Assembly (NCBI GenBank): GCA_026391775.1
Contig: JAPLDK010000054.1
Coordinates: 13,907 to 77,906 of the forward strand
DNA length: 64,000 nucleotides
Direction: 5' to 3'
DNA from: Bacteroidota bacterium
GTDB taxonomy: Bacteria; Bacteroidota; Bacteroidia; Bacteroidales; FEN-979
Below are positions 25,557 through 43,352 of the stretch, piece by piece. The translations under genes were made by a program, and so were the position numbers. Every line of letters starts with the position of its first letter. The first letter of the stretch is position 1. Under the pieces are notes generated by a model. The model had not been told where the DNA came from. It ran no database searches and was given only the letters and a program-made list of their open reading frames with translations.

Positions 25557-28500
25557 TTATATCGCCAGTCCCTTAAACAAAGTGTCGTTACGCCAATTTC
25601 CAAGGATTGCCTTGGCGGGCAGCCACACCCAAAGTATACCATTCAGAAGAAAAACCGATCCCAGCAGCGTTAAAAACAGCCCCGGGGTCTTATAGGCAGG
25701 TGAGAGGAGTGAAGGAAGGATACCGGTAAAGGCGGAAATTATGCCCAGGCATGTTCCGGCAAGCAGGATCATCAGGTGTTCGGCAAACACCAGCTTCAGA
25801 ATATATTTCCGTTTATATCCCAAAGCTATGTATAGCATGAGTTCATTCTTTCTCTCGAGCATATTCCTGAGAAGAACCAGCCCAAGTCCGAATGTGCCTA
25901 TGATCATCCCGAGCCCACCAAGCAGCATGAAGACCGAAAGGTAAGTATTCTCCACCGCGTTAAACGAAGCAAGTTTCACCGGTGCAGGCATGACACTTAT
26001 GCCATAATCCCTGAAGGCAGATTCCAGGGCTTCACGGATGCTGTCCCCGGAGGATGAGGAGCCGTCGAGAAGAAAGTTTTTAAAACCTGCCACGGAGGGA
26101 AAATGGATGCGGAAAAGGCTGTCGGAGATCAGCAGATATCCCTGGAACACCGAATTATCAAGGCCTCCCATGAGTTTTAACCCGATTTTTCCCCCGTTTT
26201 CCCCCAAGTAAAACAAGGTATCCCCGATTTTTTTCTGAAGCCCCCAGGTGATCACGGTCTGATCGGCAAAAGCTGGAATAATCTCCGGTCCCATGGATTT
26301 TTGGAGAGCCAGCCAGGGGTGGTTTTCGTCAATTCCCTTATGAAGGGCAAGAAAACTGAAGGCTCCTATACGGTTAAATGCTTCCGGGGGGATGCCGAGG
26401 ACGGAAGGCAGTGCAGCCTTGTTTAGATTGAGGCAACTGGCATCGTCACCTTCAAGCCTCTGCATTGCAACCAGACCGGCATTCCTGAAGCAGGATTCGT
26501 CCTGAAGGGCATATTCCTTTTTGCCCATGGGAGAGTCCGGATCATAACGAAGGGGTATGCTTGTCTCAGCCCAGAACCCGAAACCGCCTGTCCCGGATCG
26601 GGCATCATTCTCCGATCCATAGAAAGTCTTTTTGTTTGCTGCAGTTATGAAAATGCTGAAGGTTCCCATTGCAAGCAGGATAATAACTGTCATGGTACGG
26701 CTTCTTTTCAGGCCGGCATTCTTCAATGAAAGTGAAACGAAGCTGAAGAAAAGTTCATTGTGCGTTATCGATCTGCTGATAAGTAGGGAATTAAAAGCAA
26801 AACCTCCTCCGGCAAGCATCAGGGCCCCGGCTACCAGGGATAGGGATGAATGAATTCCCTTTAAGTCAAGCAGAAGAAATGCAGTGAACAGTATGGACCC
26901 AGAAACGAGCAGGAAGGCAAAAAGCCTGTTGAGAAAGAGTTCCCGATTTTGTTCAGCCCTGTTGTCAGAATCTATGGCAGAAGCCCTCAGCCAGGCTGGT
27001 TTCCTTAGGTTCCTGCAGAGAACGATGAGCATGAACGGAAAGGCCGTGAAAGTTCCTGCCATGGCCCCGAGGATCAGGGTTAGCGGTCTTATTTTCATTT
27101 CCAGCCCGGAGATCCCGACGGCATCCTGCCAGATAGTGTTCAGGCCAAAAAGCATAAGGCGGTTATAGAGAAGGCCGGCCAGTGCGCCCAGGATCCCTCC
27201 CGCCACAGAGAGAACAAGGCCTTCGGTGATCAGGATCCGGAAGATCTGCTGCTTTCTGAAGCCGATGGCTGACAATACTCCCGATTCTTTTATCCTGGTC
27301 TGGATATGCAGCGAAAACAACAGGGTAACCAAAAGGAGGGCCGAGAGTATTATAAAGAAACTAAGGCTTAAAAAAAGGCCGGCAAAATCCGTTGAATTGG
27401 ATGCTGAGCTTAGCCCTTCATCATAAACCGGTTTGAATACCAGCCCCTGCTGACGTGGGTTGAGTTTCTTCAGGATTGCCGGGCCGATTGTATCAAGTTT
27501 TTTTGAACTGGCGGTAAACCGGATGGATGTGAGGCTGCCGAAGGGGTTTGTCCAGAGTTTCTGACCGGCAACAATCGAGATAAAGGCTTTAGGTGTGCCA
27601 CGGTAGGCATTCCAGTAGTCCTCATCTTTTTGTCTTATCTTTTTCAGGTCTACAGGCGTACCGGTTTCCCAGTCACGGCAGTTCCCGGCTTCCGACATGC
27701 CGGGAAAGCCTGGCATCAGCGAAGGATCCCAGATAGGATCCTGCATAGGCCTGATCTGGCGGACCACAAATACCGAGCTGTCTTCACTGAGATGGCGGTG
27801 GGGGCCCATTATAAAATACTTCAGTCCCATGGAATCACCCTGCTTAATTCCCAGGTCTGCCGCCAGCCATGAATTAATAATAATTCCATCACCGCCGGGG
27901 TCTGTTCCAAGGAAATCCGGCGAAGCCCCAGTGACAAAAGAATATGGTGTTGACCTGCCGTTAAACGAAAATGAATTTACGAGGTAGGTCAGAAAAGGAT
28001 GGCTGTCAGGCAGTGTAGCCTCTACAGCTGCAGCTGTTTGATCATCGATAAAAATACGCCCCGATGTCAATTCACAGCTGGTACCCTGCTTTAGGTGTTG
28101 AATTTTCAGCCCTGCATCTTCGGGCCTCCACACCAGGCGGAGCAGGCTGTCGGGACGAAGAGCATCTGCTTTTTCAGTTTCAGCAATCAGCAGTAAGTTC
28201 GCCAGTCCTTTCAAGTCAAGAATCCCGGCCATTTTATCCAGGGAGATGAAAACCGTATAGGGGGCGGCCTGGTTATTATTCAGGCTGAACCGCCCCATCT
28301 GTTCGTCCTCCGCTATGGACTTAACCCTGAATCTTAAGCCAACCATAGCTGATTTTTCAGCAACAAACGGAGCATTGGCTGGAGCAAGACCCTGTTTGGA
28401 AACCCTGAGAAGAAAATAATCTCCGGGCTGTAAGTCAAGTTTTTCAGCTGTATTCCTGCTGATGACAGCCGTGGTTGCATCCGGGCAGGTCGCTGCCTTC

Positions 28501-28859
28501 TCCCACAGCTTTGTAAAACGCCCGTCGATCCCCAAAATCTGAACACGGTTGATCCTTCTATTGTTTTCAGGATTTACTGTTATGCCTTCGGATAGCATTG
28601 CCGGTGCTACTATGCTGCCGGTCTTAAGGCTCATATCACCGGCCAGTCCCTGGCGAAAATACCGCAGGTCGGGATGCAATGCATAGCGTATTTTCCCAAG
28701 ACGTACACTGCTGATGTGTTGAAGGCTGTACTTCACCGAATCGCCAAGTATCAAGGCGCCCGTAAGGACGGCTGTGCTGACAAGCGTCCCGGCAAGAATG
28801 GCCAGGAATACTTTCCTGTAATAACGGAAATCGAGGAGTATCAGGCGGGTGAAGTTCAT
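25557..28859 (-). CDS. Large FtsX-family ABC permease (two FtsX modules, 1100 aa)
   Basis: It has an N-terminal TM helix, then a long extracytoplasmic region, then a TM cluster, and this pattern repeats twice. The FtsX-like helices (for example LSAIGFRKQQIFRILITEGLVL and YIALGYKRKYILKLVFAEHLMIL) fit MacB/LolE/YbbP-like permeases. Its start overlaps the ATPase stop by 4 nt. Confidence 0.8.
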   Translation of the reverse strand: MNFTRLILLDFRYYRKVFLAILAGTLVSTAVLTGALILGDSVKYSLQHISSVRLGKIRYALHPDLRYFRQGLAGDMSLKTGSIVAPAMLSEGITVNPENNRRINRVQILGIDGRFTKLWEKAATCPDATTAVISRNTAEKLDLQPGDYFLLRVSKQGLAPANAPFVAEKSAMVGLRFRVKSIAEDEQMGRFSLNNNQAAPYTVFISLDKMAGILDLKGLANLLLIAETEKADALRPDSLLRLVWRPEDAGLKIQHLKQGTSCELTSGRIFIDDQTAAAVEATLPDSHPFLTYLVNSFSFNGRSTPYSFVTGASPDFLGTDPGGDGIIINSWLAADLGIKQGDSMGLKYFIMGPHRHLSEDSSVFVVRQIRPMQDPIWDPSLMPGFPGMSEAGNCRDWETGTPVDLKKIRQKDEDYWNAYRGTPKAFISIVAGQKLWTNPFGSLTSIRFTASSKKLDTIGPAILKKLNPRQQGLVFKPVYDEGLSSASNSTDFAGLFLSLSFFIILSALLLVTLLFSLHIQTRIKESGVLSAIGFRKQQIFRILITEGLVLSVAGGILGALAGLLYNRLMLFGLNTIWQDAVGISGLEMKIRPLTLILGAMAGTFTAFPFMLIVLCRNLRKPAWLRASAIDSDNRAEQNRELFLNRLFAFLLVSGSILFTAFLLLDLKGIHSSLSLVAGALMLAGGGFAFNSLLISRSITHNELFFSFVSLSLKNAGLKRSRTMTVIILLAMGTFSIFITAANKKTFYGSENDARSGTGGFGFWAETSIPLRYDPDSPMGKKEYALQDESCFRNAGLVAMQRLEGDDASCLNLNKAALPSVLGIPPEAFNRIGAFSFLALHKGIDENHPWLALQKSMGPEIIPAFADQTVITWGLQKKIGDTLFYLGENGGKIGLKLMGGLDNSVFQGYLLISDSLFRIHFPSVAGFKNFLLDGSSSSGDSIREALESAFRDYGISVMPAPVKLASFNAVENTYLSVFMLLGGLGMIIGTFGLGLVLLRNMLERKNELMLYIALGYKRKYILKLVFAEHLMILLAGTCLGIISAFTGILPSLLSPAYKTPGLFLTLLGSVFLLNGILWVWLPAKAILGNWRNDTLFKGLAI

Positions 28860-29554
28860 CCTTTTGAAATTGGCAGAAGCTTTCCGGAACCCAGTTTGTA
28901 TATCTTGTCCATCTGGCCTGCAAGTTCAGGTGAATGTGTCACAACCACAAGTGAAAGAGCTTCTTCCCGTTTCAGTGAGGCCAATAGAAGGCCGAGGCGG
29001 GCGGCAGTTTCAGCATCCAGTGAACCCGTCGGTTCGTCGGCAAGCAGCAACCTGGGCTTGTTCACAAGAGCCCTTACAACTGCCGCCCTTTGACACTCCC
29101 CCACCGAAAGCCGGGAAGGTCTCTGATGGATCAGGTCCTGCAGCCCCATGCTCTCGATAAGCCTGATAGCCCTTTCACGCCCTGCCTTGCGTGCCGCCTT
29201 GTCCTTCAGAGGCAAAACGGGAAGCAGCACGTTTTCAAGCAGGCTGAGCTGGGGCAGCAGAAAATGAAGCTGGAACACAAACCCGATGAACCCATTCCTC
29301 AGGTCTGCAAGTTCAGTCTCCTTCATGTCACTGACGTTCATCCCGTTAAGTATTACCAGGCCTGAATCAGGCCTGTCGAGGGTTCCCAGTATATTCAGCA
29401 GGGTGGTTTTTCCTGAACCGGACGGACCCGTGATAGCGATGGATTCGTTATCACCGATCTGCAGGGAGACCCCCTCGAGGACAGGCTTTTGCCGGACCGT
29501 AAGAGCCTGGTTATAGTGTTTCGTGATATCCTGAAGTTCTGCAAGCATTAACAT
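28856..29554 (-). CDS. ABC transporter ATP-binding protein (LolD/MacB-ATPase type)
   Basis: Walker A GPSGSGKTTLLN, Q-loop, signature LSVGECQRAAVVRAL, Walker B LLLADEPTGSLD, and H-loop VTHS. Confidence 0.9.
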   Translation of the reverse strand: MLMLAELQDITKHYNQALTVRQKPVLEGVSLQIGDNESIAITGPSGSGKTTLLNILGTLDRPDSGLVILNGMNVSDMKETELADLRNGFIGFVFQLHFLLPQLSLLENVLLPVLPLKDKAARKAGRERAIRLIESMGLQDLIHQRPSRLSVGECQRAAVVRALVNKPRLLLADEPTGSLDAETAARLGLLLASLKREEALSLVVVTHSPELAGQMDKIYKLGSGKLLPISKG

Positions 29555-30828
29555 ATCTTTTTATATACATCCAGTATTTTCGCCGTAAGCGAAACACAAT
29601 CAAATTTTTCTTCGACCGCTTTGCGGCCCCTGGCACTAAGTTGCATCAGCCTTTCCCGGTCATGCAGCAAAGAGGCAAGGCCGGAGGCAAGGGTTTCAGG
29701 GGTGTTAGGATGATACAGCAGCCCTCCTCCCGTTTCTTCTATTATCTCGGGAAAAGCTCCCAGGGCAGGCTGAACCAGTGGGACTCCCGATGCCAGGGCT
29801 TCCAGCTGGTACATGCCGAATGCCTCACCCTTTAAGACCGGAACTGAAAGCACAGAAACAGACTTAAAGAAATTGCCCAGGTTTTCCGGCCTGAAATCTT
29901 CAAATACCAGAATATCCTTCCCAAGCCCTGCTTTCTGCAGTTTTTTCATCTGCCGGTTAAAAAAAGGTTTATCGTCGCCGGTCATGCCGCCAGTAACATG
30001 CAGCCTGATACTTTCAAACCCCGGTTCCGATTTTAATAGTACAAATGCATCGACAAGAATTCCAAATCCGTTTTCTTCGTATATCCTGGATAAATAACCG
30101 ATTGCCAGGGGCTCCGGAGGCTCCGTATGAAATTCGTACAGGGCCGGGTTTATGCCAATGTGAACGACATTCACCTTGTCGTCGGGCAGGTGCATCTTGC
30201 TCTTCATCACGCCTGCAAAATACCGGCTTACTGCGATAAATGCATTTACGTCCACGGCCTTTTCGGCCAGCAAAGCCCAGATCTTCTCACGGTGTGGTTC
30301 ATTCATTGCATCCACCCAAACATCTTCATCCTGCAGGGAGCACACAATGGGCACCCCAACTTCCTCCTTTATCTGCAGGGCCATCCCAAGCAATAGTGCA
30401 TTTGAAAAGTGCACAACGTCGGGCTTCTCATGGTGTTTTAGAAAATGAATCAGCTGTTCCAGCTCCTTTACCTGGTGCCCATGCTTTCCCATCAGCATCG
30501 ATTCGGTTAGTTCTTCGAGCCCGTGTGCCCTGGTGGAACCCGCTTTGCCTGCAGCGAGTTTCAGCACAGGGGCGGAATTCAGCAAATGTTCCATCCAGGC
30601 TGGCATATGGCGAAGAAGAGGGAAGATCTGTTTAAGGTAGATGTTCACAGCCCCGTAAAATACAGTTGCGTCCTGCGTATCCCCGTTGATCGTCAGGGGA
30701 AGGTAAACGGGAAGTGTCATGGCATCATGGCCGGCCTTGCGAAGTGCGTTCACAAAACCCGAATCGCGCAGGCAGTTCCCGCAATAAAAGGTTCCTCCGA
30801 AGCCGGGGACTATGTTGACAATTTTCAT
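29548..30828 (-). CDS. Glycosyltransferase, GT-B fold (GT4-like)
   Basis: The C-terminal half has the GT4/GT1 signature EAFGMYQLEALASGVPLVQPALGAFPEII (E-x7-E region). The N-terminus MKIVNIVPGFGGTFYCGNCLRD is typical of a GT-B N-domain. It overlaps both neighbours, by 7 nt and by 4 nt. Confidence 0.75.
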   Translation of the reverse strand: MKIVNIVPGFGGTFYCGNCLRDSGFVNALRKAGHDAMTLPVYLPLTINGDTQDATVFYGAVNIYLKQIFPLLRHMPAWMEHLLNSAPVLKLAAGKAGSTRAHGLEELTESMLMGKHGHQVKELEQLIHFLKHHEKPDVVHFSNALLLGMALQIKEEVGVPIVCSLQDEDVWVDAMNEPHREKIWALLAEKAVDVNAFIAVSRYFAGVMKSKMHLPDDKVNVVHIGINPALYEFHTEPPEPLAIGYLSRIYEENGFGILVDAFVLLKSEPGFESIRLHVTGGMTGDDKPFFNRQMKKLQKAGLGKDILVFEDFRPENLGNFFKSVSVLSVPVLKGEAFGMYQLEALASGVPLVQPALGAFPEIIEETGGGLLYHPNTPETLASGLASLLHDRERLMQLSARGRKAVEEKFDCVSLTAKILDVYKKIC

Positions 30829-31967
30829 TTCTTCGTTTCTTTTAAAATGCCTCCAGGGCCAAAGGCATAAATGGTACCGTCTTCGGCACCCACCACAACG
30901 AGGTCACTTGTAACAGCAGGGGTACCGCTGAGCGGGCTGCCTATCTCATAAGTCCATCGTTCTGCACCGGTGCCCAGGTCGAGCAGGCGCAAACGGCCGT
31001 CGGAAGAAGCAATGACCACAAAATCTCCCGCAACAACAGGAGATGCGTCAACCTTCCCTCCGGCTTTGAATTTCCAAAGGATATCTCCATTCAGGGCATC
31101 AAAACAGATCACATTTTTATTCTGTGTCGCACTCACGACTTTCCCGTTCGAAATGGCAGGTGATGCAACGAAGGTCCCGCCAATTTCTTTTTTCCATACT
31201 TCTTTCCTTGTTTTCAGGTCCACGCAAAAGAATGCCCCGTCATAATTGCCTAAATACGCCTTATCCCCGCTGATGGCGGCAGAGGCAGGTATGTAGGTGA
31301 CCATATTTATCTTTTCGACCAGTTGGCCGCTTGCCGTATTTACGAGATGAAGAAAGCCGTCGCAACCTCCTGTCACGGCCAGGTTTCCGGCAATGGAGGG
31401 GGTCCCGTTGATGTAATTCCCCGAAGCATATTTCCAGATACCTTTACCGGTTAAGGCATCAATGCAGTGCAGGTTGAAGTCGTAGCTCCCGGCAATGATG
31501 CGCAGCTGCTTCCTGTCGGGTCCAAAAGTCCAGTTGCATGAACCTGACACCTGGCCATCGGTTATATATTTCCATTTTAAGGCCCCGCTGCCGGCGTCCA
31601 ACGCATAAATTACACCTTCCAGTGAACCGGCATAAACGGTTGAGTTCAACAGAAGGGGAGGGGCTTCAATTGTTGTGCCTGCCTTGAACTTCCACAGTAA
31701 TTTACCTTTCACCGTTATGGCATACAGATAGCCGTCATCGCAACCGATATAAATAGCACCGTTGCAGATCACGGCTGAGGATTTAATGGCATCGGTGGTT
31801 TTAAATGTCCATAAAAGTTTTAATGGTGGGTGGATGACAGCCCCGGCAAGGCCTGTAAGCTGTGCATCACCCCTGTAGGAAGGCCAGCAAGAGGATGATT
31901 TCACCTGGGCACAAACGGTGAAACAGCATACACACAGCAATAAACTAAGAATCCCGCCTTTTTTCAT
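30825..31967 (-). CDS. Secreted PQQ-like (BamB-like) beta-propeller repeat protein
   Basis: It has a signal peptide (MKKGGILSLLLCVCCFTVCAQ) and then WPSYRGD. Blade motifs of the form G-x-x-x-W-K/T recur: GKLLWKF, GALKWKY, GKGIWKY, KEVWKK, GDILWKF, GAERWTY. There is no CxxCH motif. Confidence 0.75.
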   Translation of the reverse strand: MKKGGILSLLLCVCCFTVCAQVKSSSCWPSYRGDAQLTGLAGAVIHPPLKLLWTFKTTDAIKSSAVICNGAIYIGCDDGYLYAITVKGKLLWKFKAGTTIEAPPLLLNSTVYAGSLEGVIYALDAGSGALKWKYITDGQVSGSCNWTFGPDRKQLRIIAGSYDFNLHCIDALTGKGIWKYASGNYINGTPSIAGNLAVTGGCDGFLHLVNTASGQLVEKINMVTYIPASAAISGDKAYLGNYDGAFFCVDLKTRKEVWKKEIGGTFVASPAISNGKVVSATQNKNVICFDALNGDILWKFKAGGKVDASPVVAGDFVVIASSDGRLRLLDLGTGAERWTYEIGSPLSGTPAVTSDLVVVGAEDGTIYAFGPGGILKETKK

Positions 31968-33588
31968 TGTGATTTATCTTATAAGCCAATGCCCCCGTAG
32001 GACAGGCTTCAACAACTTTCTCCCCCGTTCTGATCAATGCTTCCTTCAGCGACCCGCCAAGAGGAACACTGATACGAACGTCAAATCCCCTGCCTACGTA
32101 TGTCAATCCCTGCAATTCGCCTTCGGCCCGGGTGATTTCAACGCAGATCCCGCATTTGATGCACTTTTCAGGTTCGTAGATTACGAATTCGTGCTGAACC
32201 GATTTTATGATCTTTTTACGTTCGGGCCCTGTAAACTTTTTTTGGTACGCCTGGTATTCATTTGCATAGATCCGGAGTTTGCAGCTCACCGGTTTGCGGC
32301 AGTCGCAGTTCATGCAGCGGGCTGCTTCCTTCATCGCCTCGGCCTCCGTGAATCCCCCAATAAACCCCTTTTCCGGCTCAAGCCTGGAAAGAGAAGGGCT
32401 TTCTTTCAGGTATTCATCAAACTCGGCTTCCTTCAACCGGCCGAAGGATGAGTTGAATAACTGATGAACGCCACCGGGTTTGCCGGTTTTAAGAAAATGA
32501 TCGGCCGATAATGCTGCGGCTTTTCCCTGGGCAACCGAACGCACCGCCATCTGATGTTTGCGGATAATGTTCCCGCAGGCAAAGATCCCCCGTTGCTGAT
32601 GCGTAAGCGAATGATCATCACGTCCATCACGATCATCACTCTCATCCCGGGTTTTCGCTTCGAGCGTCGTCCTGCTTATCTTAAGGCCATACTCATCCGG
32701 TTCCAGGCCAAAGTCGTCGCTGATCTGTTTTTCTTCCCGTCCGCTGGCAATGATCACCGCATCAAATTCACGGAGCAGGACAGTGTCAAACAGTTCCTTT
32801 GTGACGAGTGTGCTCAACCTGAATTCAGCGCCCATCAATCTGACCACCTCAATCTCGGAATCCAGGACCTGCCTGGGAAGTTCATCTTCTGTGATATGGT
32901 AGCGAAGCAATCCGCCTGCTTCCTTATGCTGGTCAAAGAGGACCGCATGGTGACCGCAGCGCAGAACATAAAATGCTGCAGAAAGCCCTGCAGGACCGGT
33001 CCCGATGATGGCCACTTTTTTACCACTCTTTTCAACAGCGGGTGCAAGACCGGAATAAAGCCGGGATCCCTCATCCGCAGTACTTCTTTTTAAAAGGCAG
33101 ATCGAAACAGAACCATCTATAGATGCTCTGTGACAGGCCTTTTCGCAAGGAGCAGGACAAATATATCCGAGTGTCAATGGCAAGGCGATCTCCTCCCTTA
33201 CCACTTTCAAAGCTTCTTTGAAGCGCCCGGCGGCAATGAGCCTGTTCATTTCGGGTATGTCCATGAAAGCCGGGCAGGACCTGCGGCAGGGGGCTTCGCA
33301 GTCGCCCACATGGTCGCTGAGCAACAGCTCCAAGGCTTCGCGCCTGGCTTCATGTATCTCATGGGAATGGGTCTGTATATTCATTCCGTCCAGCACAGGA
33401 TACGCGCAGGATGGCAGGAGACGGCCGCTGTCAAGGTCTTTGACAAGGCAGACCATGCAGGAAGGATGGTGGGCTATCCCTTCACGGAAGCAAAGAGCTG
33501 GAATGGAAATGCCCAAAGAAGCAGCTGCCTGCATCAGGGTCATGCCTTCTTTTACCTCAAAGCTCTTATGGTCTATGGTTATCTGCAT
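31945..33588 (-). CDS. Fe-S flavoprotein: N-terminal [2Fe-2S] NuoG/HydA-N-like domain fused to a GltD-like NAD(P)H-binding oxidoreductase with a C-terminal ferredoxin domain
   Basis: N-terminus MQITIDHKSFEVKEGMTLMQAA...IPALCF...HPSCMVC (plant-type 2Fe-2S as in NuoG/HydA N-termini). DHVGDCEAPC and CPAPCEKAC (GltD-type clusters). KKVAIIGTGPAGLSAAFY and a second dinucleotide region. C-terminal CMNCDC... and CIKCGICVE. No H-cluster motifs (TSCCP, MPCxxK) are present. Confidence 0.8.
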   Translation of the reverse strand: MQITIDHKSFEVKEGMTLMQAAASLGISIPALCFREGIAHHPSCMVCLVKDLDSGRLLPSCAYPVLDGMNIQTHSHEIHEARREALELLLSDHVGDCEAPCRRSCPAFMDIPEMNRLIAAGRFKEALKVVREEIALPLTLGYICPAPCEKACHRASIDGSVSICLLKRSTADEGSRLYSGLAPAVEKSGKKVAIIGTGPAGLSAAFYVLRCGHHAVLFDQHKEAGGLLRYHITEDELPRQVLDSEIEVVRLMGAEFRLSTLVTKELFDTVLLREFDAVIIASGREEKQISDDFGLEPDEYGLKISRTTLEAKTRDESDDRDGRDDHSLTHQQRGIFACGNIIRKHQMAVRSVAQGKAAALSADHFLKTGKPGGVHQLFNSSFGRLKEAEFDEYLKESPSLSRLEPEKGFIGGFTEAEAMKEAARCMNCDCRKPVSCKLRIYANEYQAYQKKFTGPERKKIIKSVQHEFVIYEPEKCIKCGICVEITRAEGELQGLTYVGRGFDVRISVPLGGSLKEALIRTGEKVVEACPTGALAYKINHNEKRRDS

Positions 33589-35946: not shown

Positions 35947-37757
35947 TTCCCTATGCAGTATAAGTTTTTATCACCCCTGAGGAAAATATGGCCGGTCGTG
36001 AAAGCCGGGGTGCAGAATGATCCTTCTCCCAGGGGGCATTCGCTTACAGGCGAAAATTCTTTACCCGCTTTAAAAATGAACATCATTCCCTTTTTATCCA
36101 TAAGATAGATCCTTCCCTCGGCCAGCATGGGGGAGGAGTAAACGGGGTTCCCGAAATCGTGCTCCCAGTATTTGGTTCCGGAAACAGCATCATAGCATAC
36201 CGCTGTACCGTAGGAAGTGACAAGGAAAAGATATTTGTCTGTTGCCACAGGGCTTGGCACATCCGAAAGGAATTCGTTGTTTTCCCAGAGGACTTTAGGT
36301 GTTTCGCCTATCCTGACCGCCGAAAGAGTTGAATATTCGTTTACCGAAAACACGATACCATTCGCATAAGCGAGCGAAGGCCCTACTTCTCCCGATATGC
36401 AGTCGAGCTTCCAGAGTTCCTTACCGCTAAGCGGGTCGTAGGCGGCCACGCAGGGTTCGGCTGAAAGGACCAGTTCCATTCTGTTGCCAGTATTGATGAG
36501 CGATGGAGAAGCCCATGAAATTTTGACATTCCTGGAGGTTTTCCAAACCTGCTCCCCGGTCTTCCCTGAAAGACCCATCACTGCTGCGCCTCCGCGCTGG
36601 TCAAACTGAATGATGAGGACATCCCGGTACATGATGAGTGAAGAGGAATGACCGTAATGATTTGCCGGAACACCAAGATTTTTAGACCATACGGGCTTCC
36701 CGTCCATATCCAGGGCAATGAGGTCACCATTGGCAAAGATGGCGTAAACCCTGCGGCCATCGGTAGTAAGGCTGGGCGCTGCCTGACCTGTTTCCTTGCT
36801 AACCCCGGGTGCTTGTGAGGGCGAGCCCGGGATTTTTTCAACCGGAGTTTTCCAGAGCATCTTTCCTGTCACGGCATCGAGGCAGTATACTTCCCGTTTT
36901 GTTTCACTGGCCCCACTCAGGAATATCCTGTCGTTCCATATCACAGGCGAATTATAGCCGGGCAGAGGAATGTAAGTCTTCCATTTAACGTTCTTTCCGC
37001 TCCTGGCGTCCCAGCTCGTGGGAATGCTGTTGCGTTCGGTAATACCAATTCCTCCCGGGCCCCTGAAAGAAGGAAAGTTGCTCCTGATCTCCTGCCAGGA
37101 AGGATAGCTGGATGCCGGACTCTGGATGCCGGATGCAGAATCGCGTATCACGGTTGCCGAATCACGGATACCGGATGCTGGATGTGGGATGCTGGATTCA
37201 GGATGCGGGTTGGGCGATCCTGCATCCTGAATCCTGGATCCTGTTAAAGGGCTCATAGCAAACTGAAGGTCCTTTCCCATTTCGTTATGGGTGAGCCAGG
37301 CAAGAAGCAGGGTCAGAACAACCATGCCGGCCCCTGAATACATCAGCCATTTCCGTTTGTGTATCCGGATTTCCCAGAACATAACTGGTTTCCCCTGTGG
37401 TTCCTCGGGTAATTTAATCCGGATGAGCTCTATTATCTTGATACTGGATATTAGGATTAGGATGGATATGAAAAGAAGATAACCTCCGGTTCTCACCTGC
37501 CATTGTGTCGTGAAAAATGCTTTCCTGGCAAGCAGGTCCAGGGTGCGAATCTCCTGCCTTACCTGCCCGTTCTCCGGATTGTTCTGAAGCTTCTCAACCA
37601 GGGCTGTCATAGTCGTTGTATTCAGCGGATCGGCCCGTTTGATCTGGATGAAATTAACAATGATGAGAACACAGAGGACCAAGGCAAAGACCCCACTTCC
37701 GAATGAGATATTCTCAAGCAGCCTGATGGTGTTATAAGGTGATTTACCGGTCTTCAT
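35943..37757 (-). CDS. Membrane-anchored PQQ-like beta-propeller repeat protein with a low-complexity linker
   Basis: The N-terminal region has predicted TM helices (FGSGVFALVLCVLIIVNFI, GGYLLFISILILISSIKII, WLMYSGAGMVVLTLLLAWL). A Ser/Pro/Gly-rich linker follows (SPNPHPESSIPHPASGIRDSATVIRDSASGIQSPASS). Then come the propeller blades: FPSFRGPGG, GKMLWKT, GKPVWSK, GEQVWKT, GKELWKL, PKVLWEN, GTKYWEH. Confidence 0.75.
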   Translation of the reverse strand: MKTGKSPYNTIRLLENISFGSGVFALVLCVLIIVNFIQIKRADPLNTTTMTALVEKLQNNPENGQVRQEIRTLDLLARKAFFTTQWQVRTGGYLLFISILILISSIKIIELIRIKLPEEPQGKPVMFWEIRIHKRKWLMYSGAGMVVLTLLLAWLTHNEMGKDLQFAMSPLTGSRIQDAGSPNPHPESSIPHPASGIRDSATVIRDSASGIQSPASSYPSWQEIRSNFPSFRGPGGIGITERNSIPTSWDARSGKNVKWKTYIPLPGYNSPVIWNDRIFLSGASETKREVYCLDAVTGKMLWKTPVEKIPGSPSQAPGVSKETGQAAPSLTTDGRRVYAIFANGDLIALDMDGKPVWSKNLGVPANHYGHSSSLIMYRDVLIIQFDQRGGAAVMGLSGKTGEQVWKTSRNVKISWASPSLINTGNRMELVLSAEPCVAAYDPLSGKELWKLDCISGEVGPSLAYANGIVFSVNEYSTLSAVRIGETPKVLWENNEFLSDVPSPVATDKYLFLVTSYGTAVCYDAVSGTKYWEHDFGNPVYSSPMLAEGRIYLMDKKGMMFIFKAGKEFSPVSECPLGEGSFCTPAFTTGHIFLRGDKNLYCIGK

Positions 37758-37775: not shown

Positions 37776-39692
37776 TCAGGATTTCACAGGACAATAATCA
37801 ACGCATCTGGCGCAGCTGAAGCAGCGTCCTTTGTTGGTAACATAATCGGTACGGTAAACCGGCATCATGCGGCCTGCTGTCATCATCCCGAACACAAGGC
37901 CGATAAAGCCGCCGAAAAGCCATCCGCCAACATAAAATTTCTTTAATACCATGGAAGCCTCTTCATACACCTGGGCCTCAGTCTTGCCCGAGGATTTGTA
38001 TGCTTTAATCTCATATGACTCCTCTGCAACTGCAGAGTTACTGTTTGCCCCTGTTTTTTTTTCTTTAAGGTCGCTGCTTTTTGAAATTGCCAGCACCTCC
38101 TTCGCCAGCTTCACCCTGGAGTCAACGCCGGCAAGGGTTTCATGCAGCCTTGAGCCCGTGTAGCCAAACGCAAGGACCAGGAATGGGATGAGAACAGTAA
38201 GTATCATCATCTTTTTAACCATGGCCGGCCGGCTTTCAGGGCTTTTGGTTGTGACAGGGATATCGATGGCATCATAGGGACATGAATTCTCGCAGAGCCT
38301 GCATTGTATGCATTCCGAGGGGGTTATGCTGAGATGTTTCCTCGAAAAACGGCTTGTCCAGTTGAGCAGCACTCCGTATGGGCAGAGAAAGCGGCAGTAA
38401 GGCCGGGCAATGAAAACGCCGGAGAGCAGGAGGATGCCGCTGAACAGGAACATGCTGAAGGATGCGTTAAAACGGAATATTCCCACAAAAGGATCATAAC
38501 GGCAGATGATGAAATCGGTGCCGGTGGCCGCAAAAAGTACGGCAAGGCCCAGGTAAAGATAAGGGATGATGCCCAGGACAGTGTTCAGTCGTGGACCCAG
38601 CGCTTGTGGCTTGAATGCAAAGAAGTCCTGCATGGCTCCGAAAGGGCATACTGCCGCGCAAAAAGTACGGCCGAAGAAGAGCGTAAATACGAGAGGAAGG
38701 GCGAAAAAAAGAACGACACTGAGGGGTAGTATAAAAGTATTGTCGAACAGGGCCAGGCTTACATTCTGGATAGCCCCGATGGAACATACACAGCCTTCAC
38801 GGTAAAACCCGAAATATACAAGGGAGAATACACTCATGGCGAATACCCATAGCCTGGACCGTTTTTTAAGTACCAGCCAGGTGACCACTGAAAGCAAAAC
38901 GAAAAGTACAATTACATCCAGGCAGGCAAGGAATTCTCCCCGGGGAAGGGGTATCTGGGTCTGTGGCTGGGTGTATGCAGATTCGAATTCTGGCTTTGGG
39001 AAACGCTGTATCGCCATGGCGGCGGTGGAGAGCAGGGCAGCTACGCCGGTGAGGATGGCGGTCTTAGCGTTCCCGAAGCTTTTCAGCAATGAGGGTTTGT
39101 TGGCCGGTACCCGTGTAAAGGCCTGGGACGGGCAGTTCCTGGCAATGGAACATTCGTTGCAGTTCTTGCAGCAGTCGTGGCGCACCTGCAGCTGAAGGGA
39201 ACCGTTGCCGAAAGCGCCGCAGCCTTTCACGCATTTCCCGCAGCCTATGCAGAGTTCCTCGTTAACTGTATATTCGAAAAAAGGGTCTTCAATGAATTTC
39301 CGTTTAAGTGCATTGGTAGGGCAGAGCTGGTGTTCGGCTGCAGTGTCAAGGGTTTTGGTCCCCGGCTTGAAATAACCCCCGCAAAGGTCGCAATAGCCGC
39401 ACATGGCGAAGGCATGGGTGCATTTCACGGCCGAAGGGCTCATCACGCAATTGGTTGCACAGCGGCCGCATTGTATGCATCTGGCCGGATCAAGCTGCCA
39501 TACCATCTGCCTGGCTCCCATAGCAGCGGGAAGCATGCAGCTTTTTGACCTGCTGCAGCTGCTACAGTCAAAGCCGGATGAACAGGAATTTTTATCGCGT
39601 GAACGGAACAACAGTGACCCGCTGAGGAGCCCCAGGGCAGCGAGAATTCCTCCCCGCATCAAAGTATTTAAAAATTCACGCCTGTTTGGCAT
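37776..39692 (-). CDS. Tat-signal polyferredoxin membrane protein (NapG-like periplasmic ferredoxin domain fused to a NapH/NosH-like membrane core with cytoplasmic 4Fe-4S domains)
   Basis: Twin-arginine N-terminus MPNRREFLNTLMRGGILAALGLL. Ferredoxin motifs CIQCGRCATNC, CDLCGG, CIGCGKCVKGC, CKNCNEC lie before the first TM block. The membrane core has NapH-type motifs: REGCVCS, FCAAVCPFG, YCRFLCPYG. Then CIQCRLCENSCPYDAI, two further TM helices, and a terminal CFSCARCVDYCP. Confidence 0.8.
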   Translation of the reverse strand: MPNRREFLNTLMRGGILAALGLLSGSLLFRSRDKNSCSSGFDCSSCSRSKSCMLPAAMGARQMVWQLDPARCIQCGRCATNCVMSPSAVKCTHAFAMCGYCDLCGGYFKPGTKTLDTAAEHQLCPTNALKRKFIEDPFFEYTVNEELCIGCGKCVKGCGAFGNGSLQLQVRHDCCKNCNECSIARNCPSQAFTRVPANKPSLLKSFGNAKTAILTGVAALLSTAAMAIQRFPKPEFESAYTQPQTQIPLPRGEFLACLDVIVLFVLLSVVTWLVLKKRSRLWVFAMSVFSLVYFGFYREGCVCSIGAIQNVSLALFDNTFILPLSVVLFFALPLVFTLFFGRTFCAAVCPFGAMQDFFAFKPQALGPRLNTVLGIIPYLYLGLAVLFAATGTDFIICRYDPFVGIFRFNASFSMFLFSGILLLSGVFIARPYCRFLCPYGVLLNWTSRFSRKHLSITPSECIQCRLCENSCPYDAIDIPVTTKSPESRPAMVKKMMILTVLIPFLVLAFGYTGSRLHETLAGVDSRVKLAKEVLAISKSSDLKEKKTGANSNSAVAEESYEIKAYKSSGKTEAQVYEEASMVLKKFYVGGWLFGGFIGLVFGMMTAGRMMPVYRTDYVTNKGRCFSCARCVDYCPVKS

Positions 39693-39696
39693 TGTT

Positions 39697-40659
39697 TTAT
39701 TTTTTTACAAAGATCCTCACAAGGTTCTTTTCAGGATCCAGCACTATGATCCTGTCCTCCGAGTCTACGGCCAGGTCCAGTCCCCGCGTGCCTTCAATGA
39801 ACGCTGAGGGTGGGGCAACAATACATTTAAACACTCCCTGCGGCGAAAATACCTTTACCCGTTCAATCCCTTTCTCGCTTGTCACAAAAGAACCGTCGGA
39901 GAGGAAAGCAAAATGCGACGGGTTACAGCATCCGCAGAAACCGTCGACAGCCATGGATGCCTCTCCCCAGGCTGAGTTCAGGCTGCCGTCATTACTGAAT
40001 TGTTCGAGGGAATGCCTGCCTGTATTAGCGACCCAGAGTTCCCCTTTCGTTCCAAGAGCCAGGTCGAAATACGGGCTGGGGACAATAAAACCCGGAATGT
40101 TTTTCTGAGGGTCCTTTTCGCCTATGCGGTTTATGAGACGGCCGCTATGGTCATAGCGGTAAACAATCTTCTTGCCCGCATCGGCAAGAAAAACAAAGGA
40201 ATCGGACACGGCTATGCCTGTAAGTACAGATTCACCGGAAATGCTTTTCCATTTTTTCAGAGGTCTTCCAATCTGATCAAAAACCTCCACATGCTCCTGT
40301 ATGCCTATAAAGATGTCTCCTTTTTTATCAAGGGCCAGGCAGCTCGCAACGCCTTCAAACCTGAAATTCCCGTCGGGTTTACCATCCATATTGTATACCT
40401 CCAGGCCGTTTTTTCCTGCCACATAAATACGGTCCCCGGGCCCGCAGGCTATAGCATGTATTTCTTCCAGCTCCGGTTTGATTATGAGCTGTTCGGAATA
40501 TGCATTGAGGCTGCTGTCGGTCTTTTTCAGCTCTCCCAGCTTATAGTCGTAGGGATTTGCCTGATCTGCTTTCTTCGAAGAAAACAGGTCGGCCAGCATG
40601 ATAGCGATCACTGCAACAAGCAGTATCAGCCCTGAGATTATAAAGATCTTCTGTTTCAT
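39697..40659 (-). CDS. N-terminally anchored NHL-repeat six-bladed beta-propeller protein
   Basis: TM/signal anchor MKQKIFIISGLILLVAVIAIML. Six repeats of the NHL pattern end in x-V-x-x-F/Y-x-x-x-G: LEVYNMDGK, VEVFDQIGR, IVYRYDHSGR, SLEQFSNDGS, RVKVFSPQG, LVRIFVK. An unusual cysteine cluster, FCGCCNPSH, lies between blades 4 and 5. Confidence 0.7.
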   Translation of the reverse strand: MKQKIFIISGLILLVAVIAIMLADLFSSKKADQANPYDYKLGELKKTDSSLNAYSEQLIIKPELEEIHAIACGPGDRIYVAGKNGLEVYNMDGKPDGNFRFEGVASCLALDKKGDIFIGIQEHVEVFDQIGRPLKKWKSISGESVLTGIAVSDSFVFLADAGKKIVYRYDHSGRLINRIGEKDPQKNIPGFIVPSPYFDLALGTKGELWVANTGRHSLEQFSNDGSLNSAWGEASMAVDGFCGCCNPSHFAFLSDGSFVTSEKGIERVKVFSPQGVFKCIVAPPSAFIEGTRGLDLAVDSEDRIIVLDPEKNLVRIFVKK

Positions 40660-40664
40660 TTTTA

Positions 40665-42092
40665 TTACTGTTTGGCCCTGATATCGAGACAGACGAGGGT
40701 TTTTGAATCCCTCATCAGAAGGTAACCTCCGGTTATTGCTATAGGTCCCCAGGAATCCTGGCCGTCGATGATCCTGGCTTTGTCGAGGACTGTAAATCCT
40801 GCAGGTGAAGCCTTTGCAATGGTCATTTCGCCATCATCATTCAGAATAAAAAATTTTCCGTCGGCAAGTATATAAGGCCCTAAGCCGAACCTGTCAGTCT
40901 TGCCGCTGCTCATCACTATATTGCTGCAGTCGTTACCCCTGCAACAGACAAAATGGTTCCGCAGCCCCCCGGCATCTTTCGGGAGAATACCATAAAGATA
41001 ACCACCGTAGTATACCGGGGTTTGCTGTTCCGATGCCAGCCCTTCCTGGGGCTTCAGCTTTTGCAACAGTTTCACCGAATATACCCCATTGTTTTCATTT
41101 ACCTGCAGCAGGGCAGAGCCGGCACCATAACCTGCGCTTACAAAGATACGCCCTTCATCCATTACAACCGGGCTGGGTGCAACCACAGAAGGAGCGAAAG
41201 CAGTGGTTTCCCATAAGACCCTGCCACGATCCGGGCCTTCGGCTGCGATGCCACAGACACCGCCTATAGCGCAGTAAACGTACATTTTCCTGCCGTTCAG
41301 GGTCATCGGCATCAGGGAAGAATGAGACATTTTCCAGTTGTGGGGATTTGGAGTTTCCCAGGTTTTCCTGCCGGTTTTACAATCCACGGCGATCAGCAGC
41401 GATTTTCCTCCAACAGCAATAATAGCGGTATCGTGATCAATAAGGGGGCACTGCCCTGTATACCAGAACGGCACCTCGGCCTGGAATTCCCTCCCCAGGT
41501 CGAAACCCCAGAGCAGTTCCCCGCTGATGCGGTCACAGCACATCACCTGGCAGCGGGGCCCGATAGTCACTACATAGTTTTTTGAAACTGCAGGAATAGT
41601 GCGGGAAAGACCGTGGTTTCGTTTCAGGTGAACATGGTATCCTCTTCGCCATAGTTCCTCGCCTGTTGGTAATGAGAAACATCGTAAGGCGTCTTCTTTT
41701 TTTGACTCGTCGTAATCAAGCAGGTACACACGGCCGTCGTACACAGCCGCCGCCGCATGCCCCTCACCCAGGTTTAGCTTCCAAAGAATATGCGGGCCTG
41801 ACTTGCCCCATTTGGATATCAGCCGTACATTCTCCTTATTGATATTGTCAAACTCCTCTCCCCTGAAACGTGGCCAGCTGACACCCGGCATGCCGGCGAA
41901 GGATTTATAGAAGACAAAGTTTTCGCCAATGTTGACTTTCTCACCGGAGGCCGCATGACCTTTCTTCCTGTTATCCATACCGGGAACGGATAATTTAAAA
42001 GAAGAAGCAGGATCATGGAAAAACCAGGCAGCCATCAGGCCAATGCCAAGTACTACAAGGAAAGGCAGGATATATCTGGAAAATTTCTTCAC
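40665..42092 (-). CDS. Secreted or anchored PQQ-like beta-propeller repeat protein
   Basis: N-terminal hydrophobic segment ILPFLVVLGIGLMAAWF, then WPRFRGEEFDN. Blade motifs: GEELWRR, GELLWGF, GRKTWET, GRVLWET, and EGHAAAAVYDGRVY. Confidence 0.75.
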   Translation of the reverse strand: MKKFSRYILPFLVVLGIGLMAAWFFHDPASSFKLSVPGMDNRKKGHAASGEKVNIGENFVFYKSFAGMPGVSWPRFRGEEFDNINKENVRLISKWGKSGPHILWKLNLGEGHAAAAVYDGRVYLLDYDESKKEDALRCFSLPTGEELWRRGYHVHLKRNHGLSRTIPAVSKNYVVTIGPRCQVMCCDRISGELLWGFDLGREFQAEVPFWYTGQCPLIDHDTAIIAVGGKSLLIAVDCKTGRKTWETPNPHNWKMSHSSLMPMTLNGRKMYVYCAIGGVCGIAAEGPDRGRVLWETTAFAPSVVAPSPVVMDEGRIFVSAGYGAGSALLQVNENNGVYSVKLLQKLKPQEGLASEQQTPVYYGGYLYGILPKDAGGLRNHFVCCRGNDCSNIVMSSGKTDRFGLGPYILADGKFFILNDDGEMTIAKASPAGFTVLDKARIIDGQDSWGPIAITGGYLLMRDSKTLVCLDIRAKQ

Positions 42093-42093
42093 C

Positions 42094-43311
42094 TCATTTT
42101 TTCCTGATGTCGAAGGCCATCAGGGAATTGCCATGCCTGACATACAGACGGCCATTCTTGATGACCAGGTGCGCCCAGTGCTGGGCTGTTCCGAAAGGCA
42201 CCTTGAATGTGCTGACCTTGCCGAAACCGGTGGGAGTGGGCTGTGCAAGCACGACCTCGCCATTATCCCCGTAGAGATACAACAAACCTTCTGCAGAAAT
42301 AATGTTCCCCTTGCCGGTAACCTTTTCATGGTACATATCAGTCCCTGTCTTCCAGTCGGTACAATACCAGGCTTTGCCGGAATCATCCGATCCTAAGATC
42401 TTACCGTTAATAACCACAAAACCTCCCATCCTGTTGCTGATGGAAGGACTTCTCCACGTCTCACTCACACTGCTCCCGTCGGAACTCAGTTTCAGCATTA
42501 CCCCGCCTTTGTCATACCCTGAAACACAATACACCGAGCCGTCAATATATACAGGTGTGTTTGCGTGTACCGACCATGTATTGGGCTGATCAACGCTCCA
42601 GAGAAATTTTCCGTTTTCCGCGTCAATTCCGATAATAGAGCCAGCAGTATGGGTGACAAGTATCTTCCGGTTGTTATGCGAGAAAAGGGCAGGGGAACAG
42701 TAAGCGCTGGCTTCGCCTTTGGCTGCGCATTTCCATACAAGCTTGCCGGTATTGCGGTCAATGGCCACGACATTGGCCTCGGGCCCTCCCGGTGTGCAAA
42801 ACAGCTTATTGCCATCGATCAGGAGGTTCTCGGTAATACCCCATTTTATATTCGGGGCATTGAAATCTTTCAGAATATCTATGGTCCAGATGAGATCCCC
42901 GTTATCTGCCTTTCGGCAAACAAGTTTGCCGAAACCACTCATCAGGTAAATCTTCCCATCGTAAATCAGCGGGGTGCTGCGGACACCCTGCCAGCTTTCG
43001 GTCCATTCTTCTCCATAAGGAATTTTCCAGAGCAGTTTGCCGCTCAGGTCAAATGAAAAAATATAGCCGATCCCGTTGATCTCACCGTTGGTGTAAATAC
43101 GGTCATTGGTGACAGCAGCCGAAGAATGTCCCTCCCCGATCTCATCATAATGCCAGAGCAGGACCGGGCCGGTTTCGGGCCATGATTTCAAAAGGCCGCT
43201 TTCTTGATAGATGCCGTCGCGGTTTGGACCTCTCCATTGCGCAATATCCTGGGAATAAGATGAATAAACCAACAGGTTCATCAGGCAGAAAAGAAAAATA
43301 ATTCGATTCAT
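42094..43311 (-). CDS. Secreted PQQ-like beta-propeller repeat protein (first gene of the minus-strand cluster)
   Basis: The track start at 43347 is TTG and overlaps a -7 promoter box. The ATG at 43311 gives MNRIIFLFCLMNLLVYSSYSQ, a clean signal peptide, followed by WRGPNRDG. Blade motifs: GKLLWKI, GDLIWTI, GKLVWKC, GKFLWSV. Its stop lies 1 nt from the next start. Confidence 0.75.
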   Translation of the reverse strand: MNRIIFLFCLMNLLVYSSYSQDIAQWRGPNRDGIYQESGLLKSWPETGPVLLWHYDEIGEGHSSAAVTNDRIYTNGEINGIGYIFSFDLSGKLLWKIPYGEEWTESWQGVRSTPLIYDGKIYLMSGFGKLVCRKADNGDLIWTIDILKDFNAPNIKWGITENLLIDGNKLFCTPGGPEANVVAIDRNTGKLVWKCAAKGEASAYCSPALFSHNNRKILVTHTAGSIIGIDAENGKFLWSVDQPNTWSVHANTPVYIDGSVYCVSGYDKGGVMLKLSSDGSSVSETWRSPSISNRMGGFVVINGKILGSDDSGKAWYCTDWKTGTDMYHEKVTGKGNIISAEGLLYLYGDNGEVVLAQPTPTGFGKVSTFKVPFGTAQHWAHLVIKNGRLYVRHGNSLMAFDIRKK

Positions 43312-43344
43312 AAAAACAGCAGTTTGAATAGGTGGATTGTTCTT

Positions 43345-43352
43345 CAAAATTA
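43345..43352 (-). promoter_or_regulatory. -7 promoter box TAATTTTG for the 11-gene minus-strand cluster
   Basis: The plus strand reads caaaatta. It lies 34 nt upstream of the ATG at 43311 and would fall inside the coding region if the TTG at 43347 were the true start. Confidence 0.35.

Follow-up and report, generated by a model that had tools for sequence, protein, structure and literature searches.

The 64,000-nucleotide (nt) stretch of contig JAPLDK010000054.1 analysed here, hereafter the window, comes from the Bacteroidota assembly GCA_026391775.1. It contains eleven consecutive open reading frames (ORFs) on the minus strand, from position 43311 down to 25557, the products of which we call P1 to P11. 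They comprise five beta-propellers, a NapGH-like polyferredoxin, a flavoprotein module of the Bfu type, a glycosyltransferase of family GT4 and an ATP-binding cassette (ABC) system. For the coordinates and inter-gene spacings given in an initial annotation of the window, made from the sequence alone, recomputation gave exactly equal values; the Pfam calls for P1 to P11 all exceed the gathering scores, and the module assignments of that annotation are correct at the family level. The genes are listed below, with cellular locations as predicted (aa, amino acids; TM, transmembrane; PQQ, pyrroloquinoline quinone).

42094..43311, minus strand: P1, secreted PQQ_2-type propeller with a Sec signal peptide, 405 aa (PF13360, 79.5 bits)
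40665..42092, minus strand: P2, N-terminally membrane-anchored 8-bladed propeller, 475 aa (PQQ_2)
39697..40659, minus strand: P3, N-terminally anchored NHL-repeat propeller, 320 aa (PF01436)
37776..39692, minus strand: P4, fusion of a Tat-signal, 4x[4Fe-4S] NapG/NosG-like ferredoxin (~aa 1-205) with a NapH/NosH-like polytopic membrane protein (Fer4_5 and several Fer4)
35943..37757, minus strand: P5, three-TM N-terminal domain, low-complexity linker and periplasmic PQQ_2 propeller, 604 aa (PQQ_2)
33592..35946, minus strand: P6, BfuC-BfuB fusion, NuoE-like 2Fe-2S domain plus HydB/NfnB-like flavoprotein (Pfam 2Fe-2S_thioredx, Complex1_51K, NADH_4Fe-4S)
31945..33588, minus strand: P7, truncated BfuA with a 2Fe-2S domain, a GltD-type 2x[4Fe-4S] domain with a flavin Rossmann remnant and NuoG-type 4Fe-4S domains (Fer2_4, Fer4_20)
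30825..31967, minus strand: P8, secreted PQQ_2 / Beta-prop_ACSF4 propeller, 380 aa (PF13570, 223.7 bits)
29548..30828, minus strand: P9, GT4 glycosyltransferase (Pfam GT4)
28856..29554, minus strand: P10, MacB/LolD-like ABC ATPase (PF00005, 104.6 bits)
25557..28859, minus strand: P11, duplicated FtsX permease, 1100 aa (two FtsX stretches)

From P1 to P11, the gaps calculated from these coordinates are +1, +5, +4, +18, -4, +3, -23, -4, -7 and -4 nt. The ATG at 43311 is preferred over an upstream TTG at 43347 as the start of P1, since its orthologs are 404-405 aa long. The eleven genes between 25557 and 43311 are a genuine operon-type conserved block and may form a single transcript. The genes on either side are unrelated to the cluster (a hybrid PAS histidine kinase gene that converges on it and a DEAD-box helicase gene that diverges from it), and its boundaries therefore hold.

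The gene order is conserved well beyond the window. Scanning one genome per species with the P5 alignment yielded 56 loci, all from Bacteroidota metagenome-assembled genomes (MAGs) except one labelled Alphaproteobacteria. According to tblastn comparisons, the order P2-P3-P4-P5-P6-P7-P8-P9-P10-P11 is found in the same orientation in these species-representative loci wherever the contig suffices, and P5 identity falls to ~40% among the order-preserving Bacteroidota loci. An NCBI 'Bacteroidetes bacterium' MAG codes for a protein identical to P4, and two relatives reached via that protein show the same gene string. The exceptional locus (L015, SACF01000022.1, 'Alphaproteobacteria bacterium') carries a complete cluster with identities nearly equal to those of the Bacteroidales locus L031; its label is probably a binning or labelling error.

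P2 or P4 matches thousands of protein clusters at 90% identity in public data, and a P2 profile collected 668 representatives at 50% identity with E<=1e-30, many of them with high-GC-type N-termini. A metagenome scan seeded by distant P2 members returned 80 loci, with GC contents from 0.32 to 0.71, in which the order from P1 to P7/P8 is kept. The P2 protein of one of the loci (L062, GC 0.62) is identical to a 'Candidatus Hydrogenedentes' MAG protein, and its near relatives carry the names Kiritimatiellales, Kiritimatiellaceae and Pontiellaceae. Loci L140 and L141 were retrieved through homologs of the Hydrogenedentota P2, and L141 carries a protein that NCBI names Hydrogenedentes. Five Hydrogenedentota/Kiritimatiellota contexts share the arrangement of one to three P1-like genes, P2, the NHL propeller, sometimes a small ORF, the Tat-ferredoxin, the NapH-like protein, P5, P6, P7 and GT4. 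In loci of this type GT4 directly follows P7; P8, present in Bacteroidota, is absent between P7 and GT4 in L062, L138, L140, L141 and L143. The non-Bacteroidota loci all end at or before GT4, and the downstream ABC/FtsX genes are seen for Bacteroidota only. In two of these loci (L140:3964-4968 and L141:6141-7166), the P1-like propeller genes are interspersed with a prepilin-type N_methyl/SBP_bac_10 (DUF1559-like) gene.

Thus, judging from gene neighbourhoods, the order is kept across at least three phyla, Bacteroidota, Hydrogenedentota and Kiritimatiellota. The initial annotation had asked whether the genes co-occur as a syntenic block and had named random adjacency as a finding that would speak against its interpretation. 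Because the same order recurs in 56 Bacteroidota species genomes and in Hydrogenedentota/Kiritimatiellota contigs, random adjacency fails as an explanation. The carriers are anaerobic heterotrophs of lake hypolimnia, sediments, peat and bioreactors.

The two flavoproteins of the cluster, P6 and P7, are predicted to be cytoplasmic. Residues 7-155 of P6 form a NuoE-like domain and the NuoF family model scores 479 bits, while residues 179-783 match NfnB (9n5u_B, E 7.7e-208), 9bov_B, StnB (8oh5_B) and several HydB proteins, with E values ranging from 1e-183 to 1e-209. The FMN/NADH motifs GRGGAGFPTG and CNGDEGDPGAF are conserved in 43 orthologs, as are, in at least 95% of these, the cysteine ligands of the Fe-S clusters (2Fe-2S x2, N3-type 4Fe-4S, the H714/C719/C724 site and the C-terminal 2x4Fe-4S). 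This C-terminal 2x[4Fe-4S] is the dicluster typical of bifurcating HydB. As defined in PMC9304861, the Bfu core is a conserved BfuBC that holds FMN and six Fe-S clusters and has a site for NAD(H). By its motifs and ligands P6 conforms to this definition, and we assign it as a complete BfuC-BfuB (HydC/HydB-type) core. The earlier description of P6 as NuoEF-like is thereby refined: the NuoE/NuoF-like domains are there, and they belong to a complete Bfu (HydABC-type) core, so that different energetics are to be expected.

StnA/NfnA-type BfuA proteins can be aligned to P7 over their N-terminal 2Fe-2S, GltD-type Fe-S and NuoG-type Fe-S regions (query 2-284 with target 5-287, and query 331-535 with target 463-672). 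The alignment to 9bov_A, 8oh5_C and 9n5u_A omits target residues ~288-462, about 175 residues that correspond to the second Rossmann (NADPH-binding) subdomain, and a 45-residue acidic linker stands in P7 where this NAD(P)H subdomain would be. The C-terminal catalytic domain of StnA/NfnA (~500 residues) is missing as well. The Fe-S ligands and the first GxGxxG motif of P7 are conserved in Bacteroidota; the Hydrogenedentota/Kiritimatiellota proteins are 445-496 aa long, with the remaining flavin motifs eroded (445-574 aa for the orthologs overall). The initial label of P7 as GltD-like was thus borne out with regard to ancestry, but its description as an NAD(P)H module was not. With that subdomain lost, the sole nucleotide site of the pair is the NuoF-type site of P6, and for the same reason an Nfn/Stn-type transhydrogenase was rejected. 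P7 retains the Fe-S domains of BfuA with their ligands and has no catalytic or nucleotide-binding domain for a third substrate, and therefore it resembles a wire and not an enzyme. From its domain composition, it looks like a BfuA turned into an Fe-S wire with no apparent soluble third substrate.

The pair therefore departs from HydABC and from NfnABC or the Sporomusa-type Stn enzymes in three respects. BfuC and BfuB are fused, P7 has neither the NAD(P)H subdomain nor the C-terminal domain, and the P6 and P7 genes sit among genes for a membrane polyferredoxin and periplasmic propellers. Neither 'PQQ' nor 'propeller' is mentioned anywhere in the Bfu family survey (PMC9304861), and propellers or PQQ are likewise nowhere mentioned in the Hydrogenedentota Bfu paper (PMC11406978).

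P4 provides the predicted link to the membrane. Its Tat motif reads RREFL, and RRxF is found in 54 of 54 orthologs. The ferredoxin part contains four conserved 4Fe-4S Cys motifs between C72 and C158, and the membrane part two CxxxCP motifs (C345/C349 and C433/C437) and two 4Fe-4S motifs (C461-C471 and C624-C634) that are conserved also across phyla. The Pfam Fer4_5 model scores 55.7 bits, for a cutoff of 22. The Tat ferredoxin and the NapH-like protein are encoded by two genes in 52 of 54 other loci and are fused in L003 and L046; fused full-length homologs also occur in three independent database entries (P0002-P0004). The fusion is therefore genuine but atypical, and the NapG/NapH-like Tat polyferredoxin of the initial annotation holds at the motif level, with the qualification that it normally corresponds to two genes.

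The split NapH-like protein begins with a classic Sec signal peptide, which places the invariant FRFPxPEFExxY segment in the periplasm. In the resulting predicted topology the CxxxCP and Fe-S motifs face the cytoplasm, consistent with what Brondijk et al. (2004) reportedly established for Escherichia coli NapH. Three conserved cysteines, C301, C303 and C397, fall in two predicted periplasmic loops, within the cross-phylum motifs GC(V/I)C and FIIC(R/Q)YDPFVG, and may form a redox or metal site on the periplasmic face. No curated family claims the protein: P4 scores 42.2 bits against a cutoff of 234 for NapH (NF007013), 40.6 against 213 for TIGR02163 and 40 against 1000 for NosR, and the curated NapG model gives no match, so that NapG/NosG membership is by motif only. 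A sequence search found no solved structure of the P4 family.

NapGH and NosGH, regarded as quinol dehydrogenases, feed periplasmic reductases; in the mau cluster, MauM/MauN accompany a propeller enzyme. The module described here shares with NapGH, NosGH and MauMN a four-cluster ferredoxin exported by the Tat system and a polytopic protein that bears two CxxxCP motifs and, on the cytoplasmic side, two 4Fe-4S motifs. Its genetic partners are periplasmic beta-propellers, as are NosZ and methylamine dehydrogenase. In contrast with NapGH/NosGH, the NapH-like part has a signal peptide and one additional TM segment at its N-terminus, its two 4Fe-4S motifs are separated by an inserted TM hairpin, and it carries the conserved periplasmic cysteines; it remains far under the curated NapH/NosR cutoffs, and its cytoplasmic partner would be a Bfu core. 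None of the ORFs scanned codes for NapA, NosZ, a cytochrome c or a methylamine dehydrogenase subunit.

All five propellers open with a hydrophobic signal or anchor segment. P2, P3 and P5 are predicted to be anchored in the inner membrane and to face the periplasm, and P1 and P8 to be secreted. CxxCH motifs are absent from all 11 proteins of the cluster, in agreement with the initial report of propellers with signals or anchors and no haem motif. P1 is the most variable member, with one to three paralogs in relatives and a conserved N-terminal QWRGP motif. P2 is the most conserved propeller, with a minimum identity of 48% or better. Its motifs KRNHGxSRT, WYTGQCP, WKMSH, SEQQTP and RDSK contain Lys, Arg, His, Asp, Glu, Trp and Cys residues that are invariant and resemble an enzyme-like set. 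An AlphaFold2 model of P2, built with database homologs in the alignment, shows an 8-bladed propeller behind an N-terminal TM helix (mean pLDDT 86.7). Its best Foldseek matches in the PDB are BamB and tetrathionate hydrolase (query TM-score 0.55-0.62, identity 13-16%), and the profile of the P2 orthologs matches tetrathionate hydrolase with an E value of 1.7e-4. The modelled P2 thus resembles these PQQ-like propellers of the cofactor-less kind at the level of the fold, but it differs from them by its inner-membrane anchor and its own invariant motifs; a hydrolase function is a lead and not a claim.

P3 has a GF.GCCNP motif with vicinal cysteines, C244 and C245, present in at least 95% of 50 sequences, and its PDB matches are eukaryotic TRIM NHL domains only. 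P5 has an invariant periplasmic loop, RKAFFTxQWQ, and a propeller motif, NHYGHSSS. The quinoprotein models TIGR03075 and TIGR03074 give the propellers at best 72 bits for a cutoff of 480, and the BamB models TIGR03300 and NF008351 at best 145 bits (P8) for a cutoff of 285, with 25 bits for P2. No nos-specific family is found among the Pfam/NCBIfam matches of the five propellers. On these grounds we rejected identities as PQQ dehydrogenases, BamB or NosZ for the propellers. The initial statement that nos catalytic signatures are lacking can be widened, as no nos, nap, PQQ-dehydrogenase or BamB model reaches its curated threshold.

The remaining three genes code for the glycosyltransferase and the ABC system. 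The GT4 protein P9 has an unusual N-terminal motif, GGTFYC(G/Q)NC(L/V/I)RD, that is conserved across phyla. P11 is composed of two large periplasmic domains (~aa 38-494 and 742-978) and approximately 10 TM segments. Together with the separate ATPase P10 it recalls the MacB, LolCDE and ADOP systems, in which FtsX-domain permeases also have large periplasmic domains, but P11 is duplicated (1100 aa), and the operon has no adaptor or TolC-like partner. P11 remains far under the curated cutoffs (ADOP 58 vs 622, MacB 19 vs 966 and LolCE 17.6 vs 362 bits). We therefore rejected its membership of MacB/LolCE and retain only a generic FtsX domain. The proposed link between the redox genes and the GT4/ABC genes comes from their conserved adjacency only.

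As a whole, the cluster recalls in design the clade II nos systems (NosZ, NosGH and NosDFY), whose operons likewise unite a periplasmic propeller with a NosGH-like module and an ABC system. In contrast with those, it has no cupredoxin domain or cytochrome c, its ABC system is of the FtsX/MacB type and not NosDFY, and it includes GT4 and a Bfu core. The parts are of known kinds, namely a Bfu core, NapGH/NosGH-like ferredoxins, an FtsX-type ABC system, a GT4 enzyme and BamB-like propellers. By analogy, the cluster could be described as a Bfu enzyme that has a NapGH-like module of membrane and periplasm for its 'third substrate'. In the searchable literature (open-access papers and preprints) we found no published pathway that matches the cluster and no description of this combination of parts, of the trimmed BfuA, of the modified NapH-like protein with periplasmic cysteines or of their multi-phylum spread. 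As the curated nos, nap, PQQ-dehydrogenase and BamB models do not place it either, the initial view that the gene set maps to no described pathway stands within that literature.

The reading that we favour, although we are not quite half persuaded of it, is that the cluster codes for one haem-free, envelope-spanning redox machine linking cytoplasmic NADH and ferredoxin, possibly also quinol, to membrane-anchored propellers. P6 would oxidise NADH together with reduced ferredoxin, the latter through its HydB-type dicluster, in a confurcation-type reaction. The trimmed BfuA, P7, would dock on the cytoplasmic Fe-S domain of P4, which would replace the missing third substrate, and electrons would be conducted by the Fe-S chain of P7 to the clusters that the NapH-like protein has on its cytoplasmic side. 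The electrons would cross the membrane at the NapH-like part, or be exchanged there with quinol (possibly menaquinol, as in NapGH/NosGH). The Tat-exported ferredoxin would receive them and deliver them to an acceptor held by P2, P3 and P5, with P1 and P8 as soluble partners. Candidate redox-active groups of the propellers are conserved cysteines such as the CC pair of P3. The GT4 and the MacB-like ABC/FtsX pair would be accessory and probably build or export a glycoconjugate needed by the periplasmic part. For fermentative anaerobes, the cluster might thus serve as an extracytoplasmic sink for surplus reducing equivalents. The evidence for this reading is all genomic and consists of protein families, cofactor ligands, signal and anchor features, the loss of the NADPH domain and synteny. 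The route from cytoplasm through membrane to propellers sketched in the initial annotation fits the predicted topology, but the role it gave to P7 as an NAD(P)H module is lost, and the cytoplasmic proteins are not found in every locus.

Several observations weigh against this reading. In locus L043, P5 runs straight into P8-GT4-ABC-FtsX without P6 and P7, with P4 kept; as a consequence, the P6/P7 module is separable and a cytoplasmic input is not obligatory. The junction between P5 and P6, a 4-nt overlap in the window, is an insertion hot spot in relatives. A hybrid histidine kinase gene lies there on the same strand in L003, L009, L010 and L030 (904-1115 aa; multi-PAS in L009, where it was read). 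Elsewhere the insertions are MNT/HepT and AbiEii toxin modules, an Eco57I-like restriction-modification gene and an IS200-type transposase. A 154-aa ORF is also found there in L014 (11923-12384) and L027 (11960-12421), with a Pfam MaoC-like dehydratase match, and in L036 (7804-8265), where the assignment is by size and position only. Locus L033 has P5 and P6 only, without the rest of the cluster. Together, the insertions and L043 imply that the two halves of the cluster are separable: the periplasmic half (P1-P5) and the cytoplasmic/export half (P6-P11) are found together as a rule, though with exceptions. No recognisable redox cofactor site was seen in the five propellers, and the nearest folds to P2 are a scaffold (BamB) and a hydrolase (tetrathionate hydrolase). 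NapH-type proteins are not known to have a transmembrane redox chain, and quinol is regarded as the donor of NapGH/NosGH, which makes the step from cytoplasm to periplasm speculative. Lastly, the reading offers no mechanistic reason for the presence of the GT4 and the MacB-like transporter, and the outward direction of flow is putative.

In its strongest form, the favoured reading would make the cluster the first of a new class of haem-free, Bfu-driven transmembrane electron-export complexes, in which NADH and ferredoxin are confurcated, a NapH-like protein acts as the relay, and a periplasmic ferredoxin serves a cage of cofactor-less propellers. We consider this form doubtful. If true, it would be the first demonstration of how NapH/NosH/NosR-type proteins move electrons across the membrane, and possible acceptors would include sulfur species, humic quinones or another external acceptor.

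The quinol side of these arguments can be taken further. P4 might be a menaquinol dehydrogenase that feeds the propellers, in which case P6/P7 would be no more than an optional feeder, or would form a separate NADH/ferredoxin:quinone link, and no direct wire would run from cytoplasm to periplasm. Such an arrangement would agree with the established role of NapGH/NosGH, with NapH and NosR as the best curated-model matches of P4, and with L043, which keeps P4, P5, P8, P9, P10 and P11 without P6/P7. Quinones are, moreover, among the predicted third substrates of the Bfu family (PMC9304861). Nevertheless, P6/P7 adjoin P5 in nearly all loci of three phyla, no quinone-binding site is identifiable from sequence, and the NapH and NosR scores that would support the assignment are far under their cutoffs (42 vs 234 and 40 vs 1000 bits). 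We regard this arrangement as unlikely.

The conserved position of GT4 opens a different possibility, an envelope glycolipid or isoprenoid biosynthesis and export machine. In it, a lipid-linked glycoconjugate would be built, exported or remodelled by GT4, the MacB-like ABC/FtsX system and the propellers, and the Fe-S and flavin proteins would do no more than provide the reducing power that a modification step requires. GT4, with its special N-terminal motif, directly follows the redox genes in all phyla, and the ABC and FtsX genes follow it in Bacteroidota. In Kiritimatiellota, a squalene-cyclase-like gene lies directly upstream of the P1-like and P2 genes (L139:776-8667 and L142:41-1120 regions), and L139 also embeds genes for a ferredoxin, a radical SAM/SPASM enzyme, a fusion of DUF116 with a polyprenyl diphosphate synthase, and a prenyltransferase-like protein; a REP tyrosine transposase has inserted into this series. 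However, the isoprenoid genes score under curated cutoffs, and neither Bacteroidota nor L140, L143 and the Hydrogenedentota locus L141 have them; they were not seen in L138 or L062 either. The isoprenoid link is thus lineage-specific and was seen in Kiritimatiellota only. The clusters also have no conserved flippase, polymerase or acyltransferase, and a Bfu core with a nine-cluster polyferredoxin would be a heavy outlay for a single biosynthetic reduction. We find this explanation quite unlikely; if it were true, the cluster would represent a new envelope biogenesis pathway.

A reversal of the favoured scheme, to which we would give little credence, is that electrons enter through the propellers, by oxidation of an external donor of low potential, and are bifurcated to NAD+ and ferredoxin by the Bfu core, much like hydrogenase uptake without a hydrogenase. 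P7 indeed has no catalytic domain of its own. Bfu enzymes are reversible, and the potentials of their third substrates typically lie between those of NADH and ferredoxin (PMC9304861). Nevertheless, the propellers have no visible metal or cofactor site for the oxidation of a donor, and few periplasmic donors have a potential near -400 mV. It is equally improbable that the cluster consists of unrelated co-travelling modules (a soluble Bfu enzyme, a propeller/NapGH set and a GT4/ABC set), as the selfish and regulatory insertions tolerated between P5 and P6 and the incomplete loci L043 and L033 might suggest, because the order is kept over Bacteroidota, Hydrogenedentota and Kiritimatiellota despite ~40-50% identity and very different GC contents, and because P7 has lost any domain for a soluble third substrate.

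The expression signals around the cluster are weak. Two candidate elements were listed.

43345..43352, minus strand: TAATTTTG box, possible Bacteroidota -7 promoter element, 33 nt upstream of the P1 ATG
25510..25530, minus strand: terminator-like hairpin directly after the P11 stop codon, weak evidence as such sites occur at chance frequency

The TAATTTTG box is the only TAnnTTTG copy in the intergenic region upstream of P1, as reported initially, but the motif is neither unique nor enriched: the minus strand between 25557 and 43352 has five copies, four of them inside the cluster, and the window has 34 for 41.8 expected. As its frequency is at or below chance, we rejected the motif as evidence for a single promoter, and the box is a plausible promoter element only. 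A sigma-70 scan of the region gave chance-level results only, and terminator-like hairpins are also at chance level (26 vs 21.9 +/- 5.3 expected).

The hybrid PAS histidine kinase gene that converges on the cluster end occupies positions 23186-25501 on the plus strand. We rejected its product as a dedicated regulator, since such a gene lies beside or inside the cluster only here and in L003, L009, L010 and L030 and is absent elsewhere; it may be a loosely associated sensor.

Two other regions of the window contain biosynthetic or redox genes. A hybrid nonribosomal peptide synthetase-polyketide synthase cluster at positions 5-18049 (plus strand) codes for C-A-T (cut by the window start), KS-AT-KR-DH-ACP, Zn-ADH/ER-like and C-A-T-TE modules, together with a phosphopantetheinyl transferase, a TylF-like O-methyltransferase and an Orn/DAP (ornithine/diaminopimelate) decarboxylase, and the GC content falls to 0.34 at 16-18 kb. 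A second orphan membrane redox module lies on the minus strand at positions 51642-57863. It comprises an NrfC-like 4Fe-4S protein (56048-57019), an NrfD-like membrane protein of 751 aa that carries a fused Ig-like Big_3_5 domain (53781-56036) and an ORF of 554 aa without Pfam match (51642-53306), next to a divergent gene for a Crp/Fnr-type regulator (57129-57863). No catalytic subunit is recognisable in this module.

If the eleven-gene cluster is indeed an electron-export or sink system, it would extend the Bfu family to a membrane and periplasmic 'third substrate'. It would also offer a tractable case for the role of the cytoplasmic Fe-S clusters in NapH/NosH/NosR-type proteins and for whether such proteins conduct electrons through the membrane. 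For fermentative Bacteroidota, Kiritimatiellota and Hydrogenedentota, it would represent a missing route in models of redox balance.

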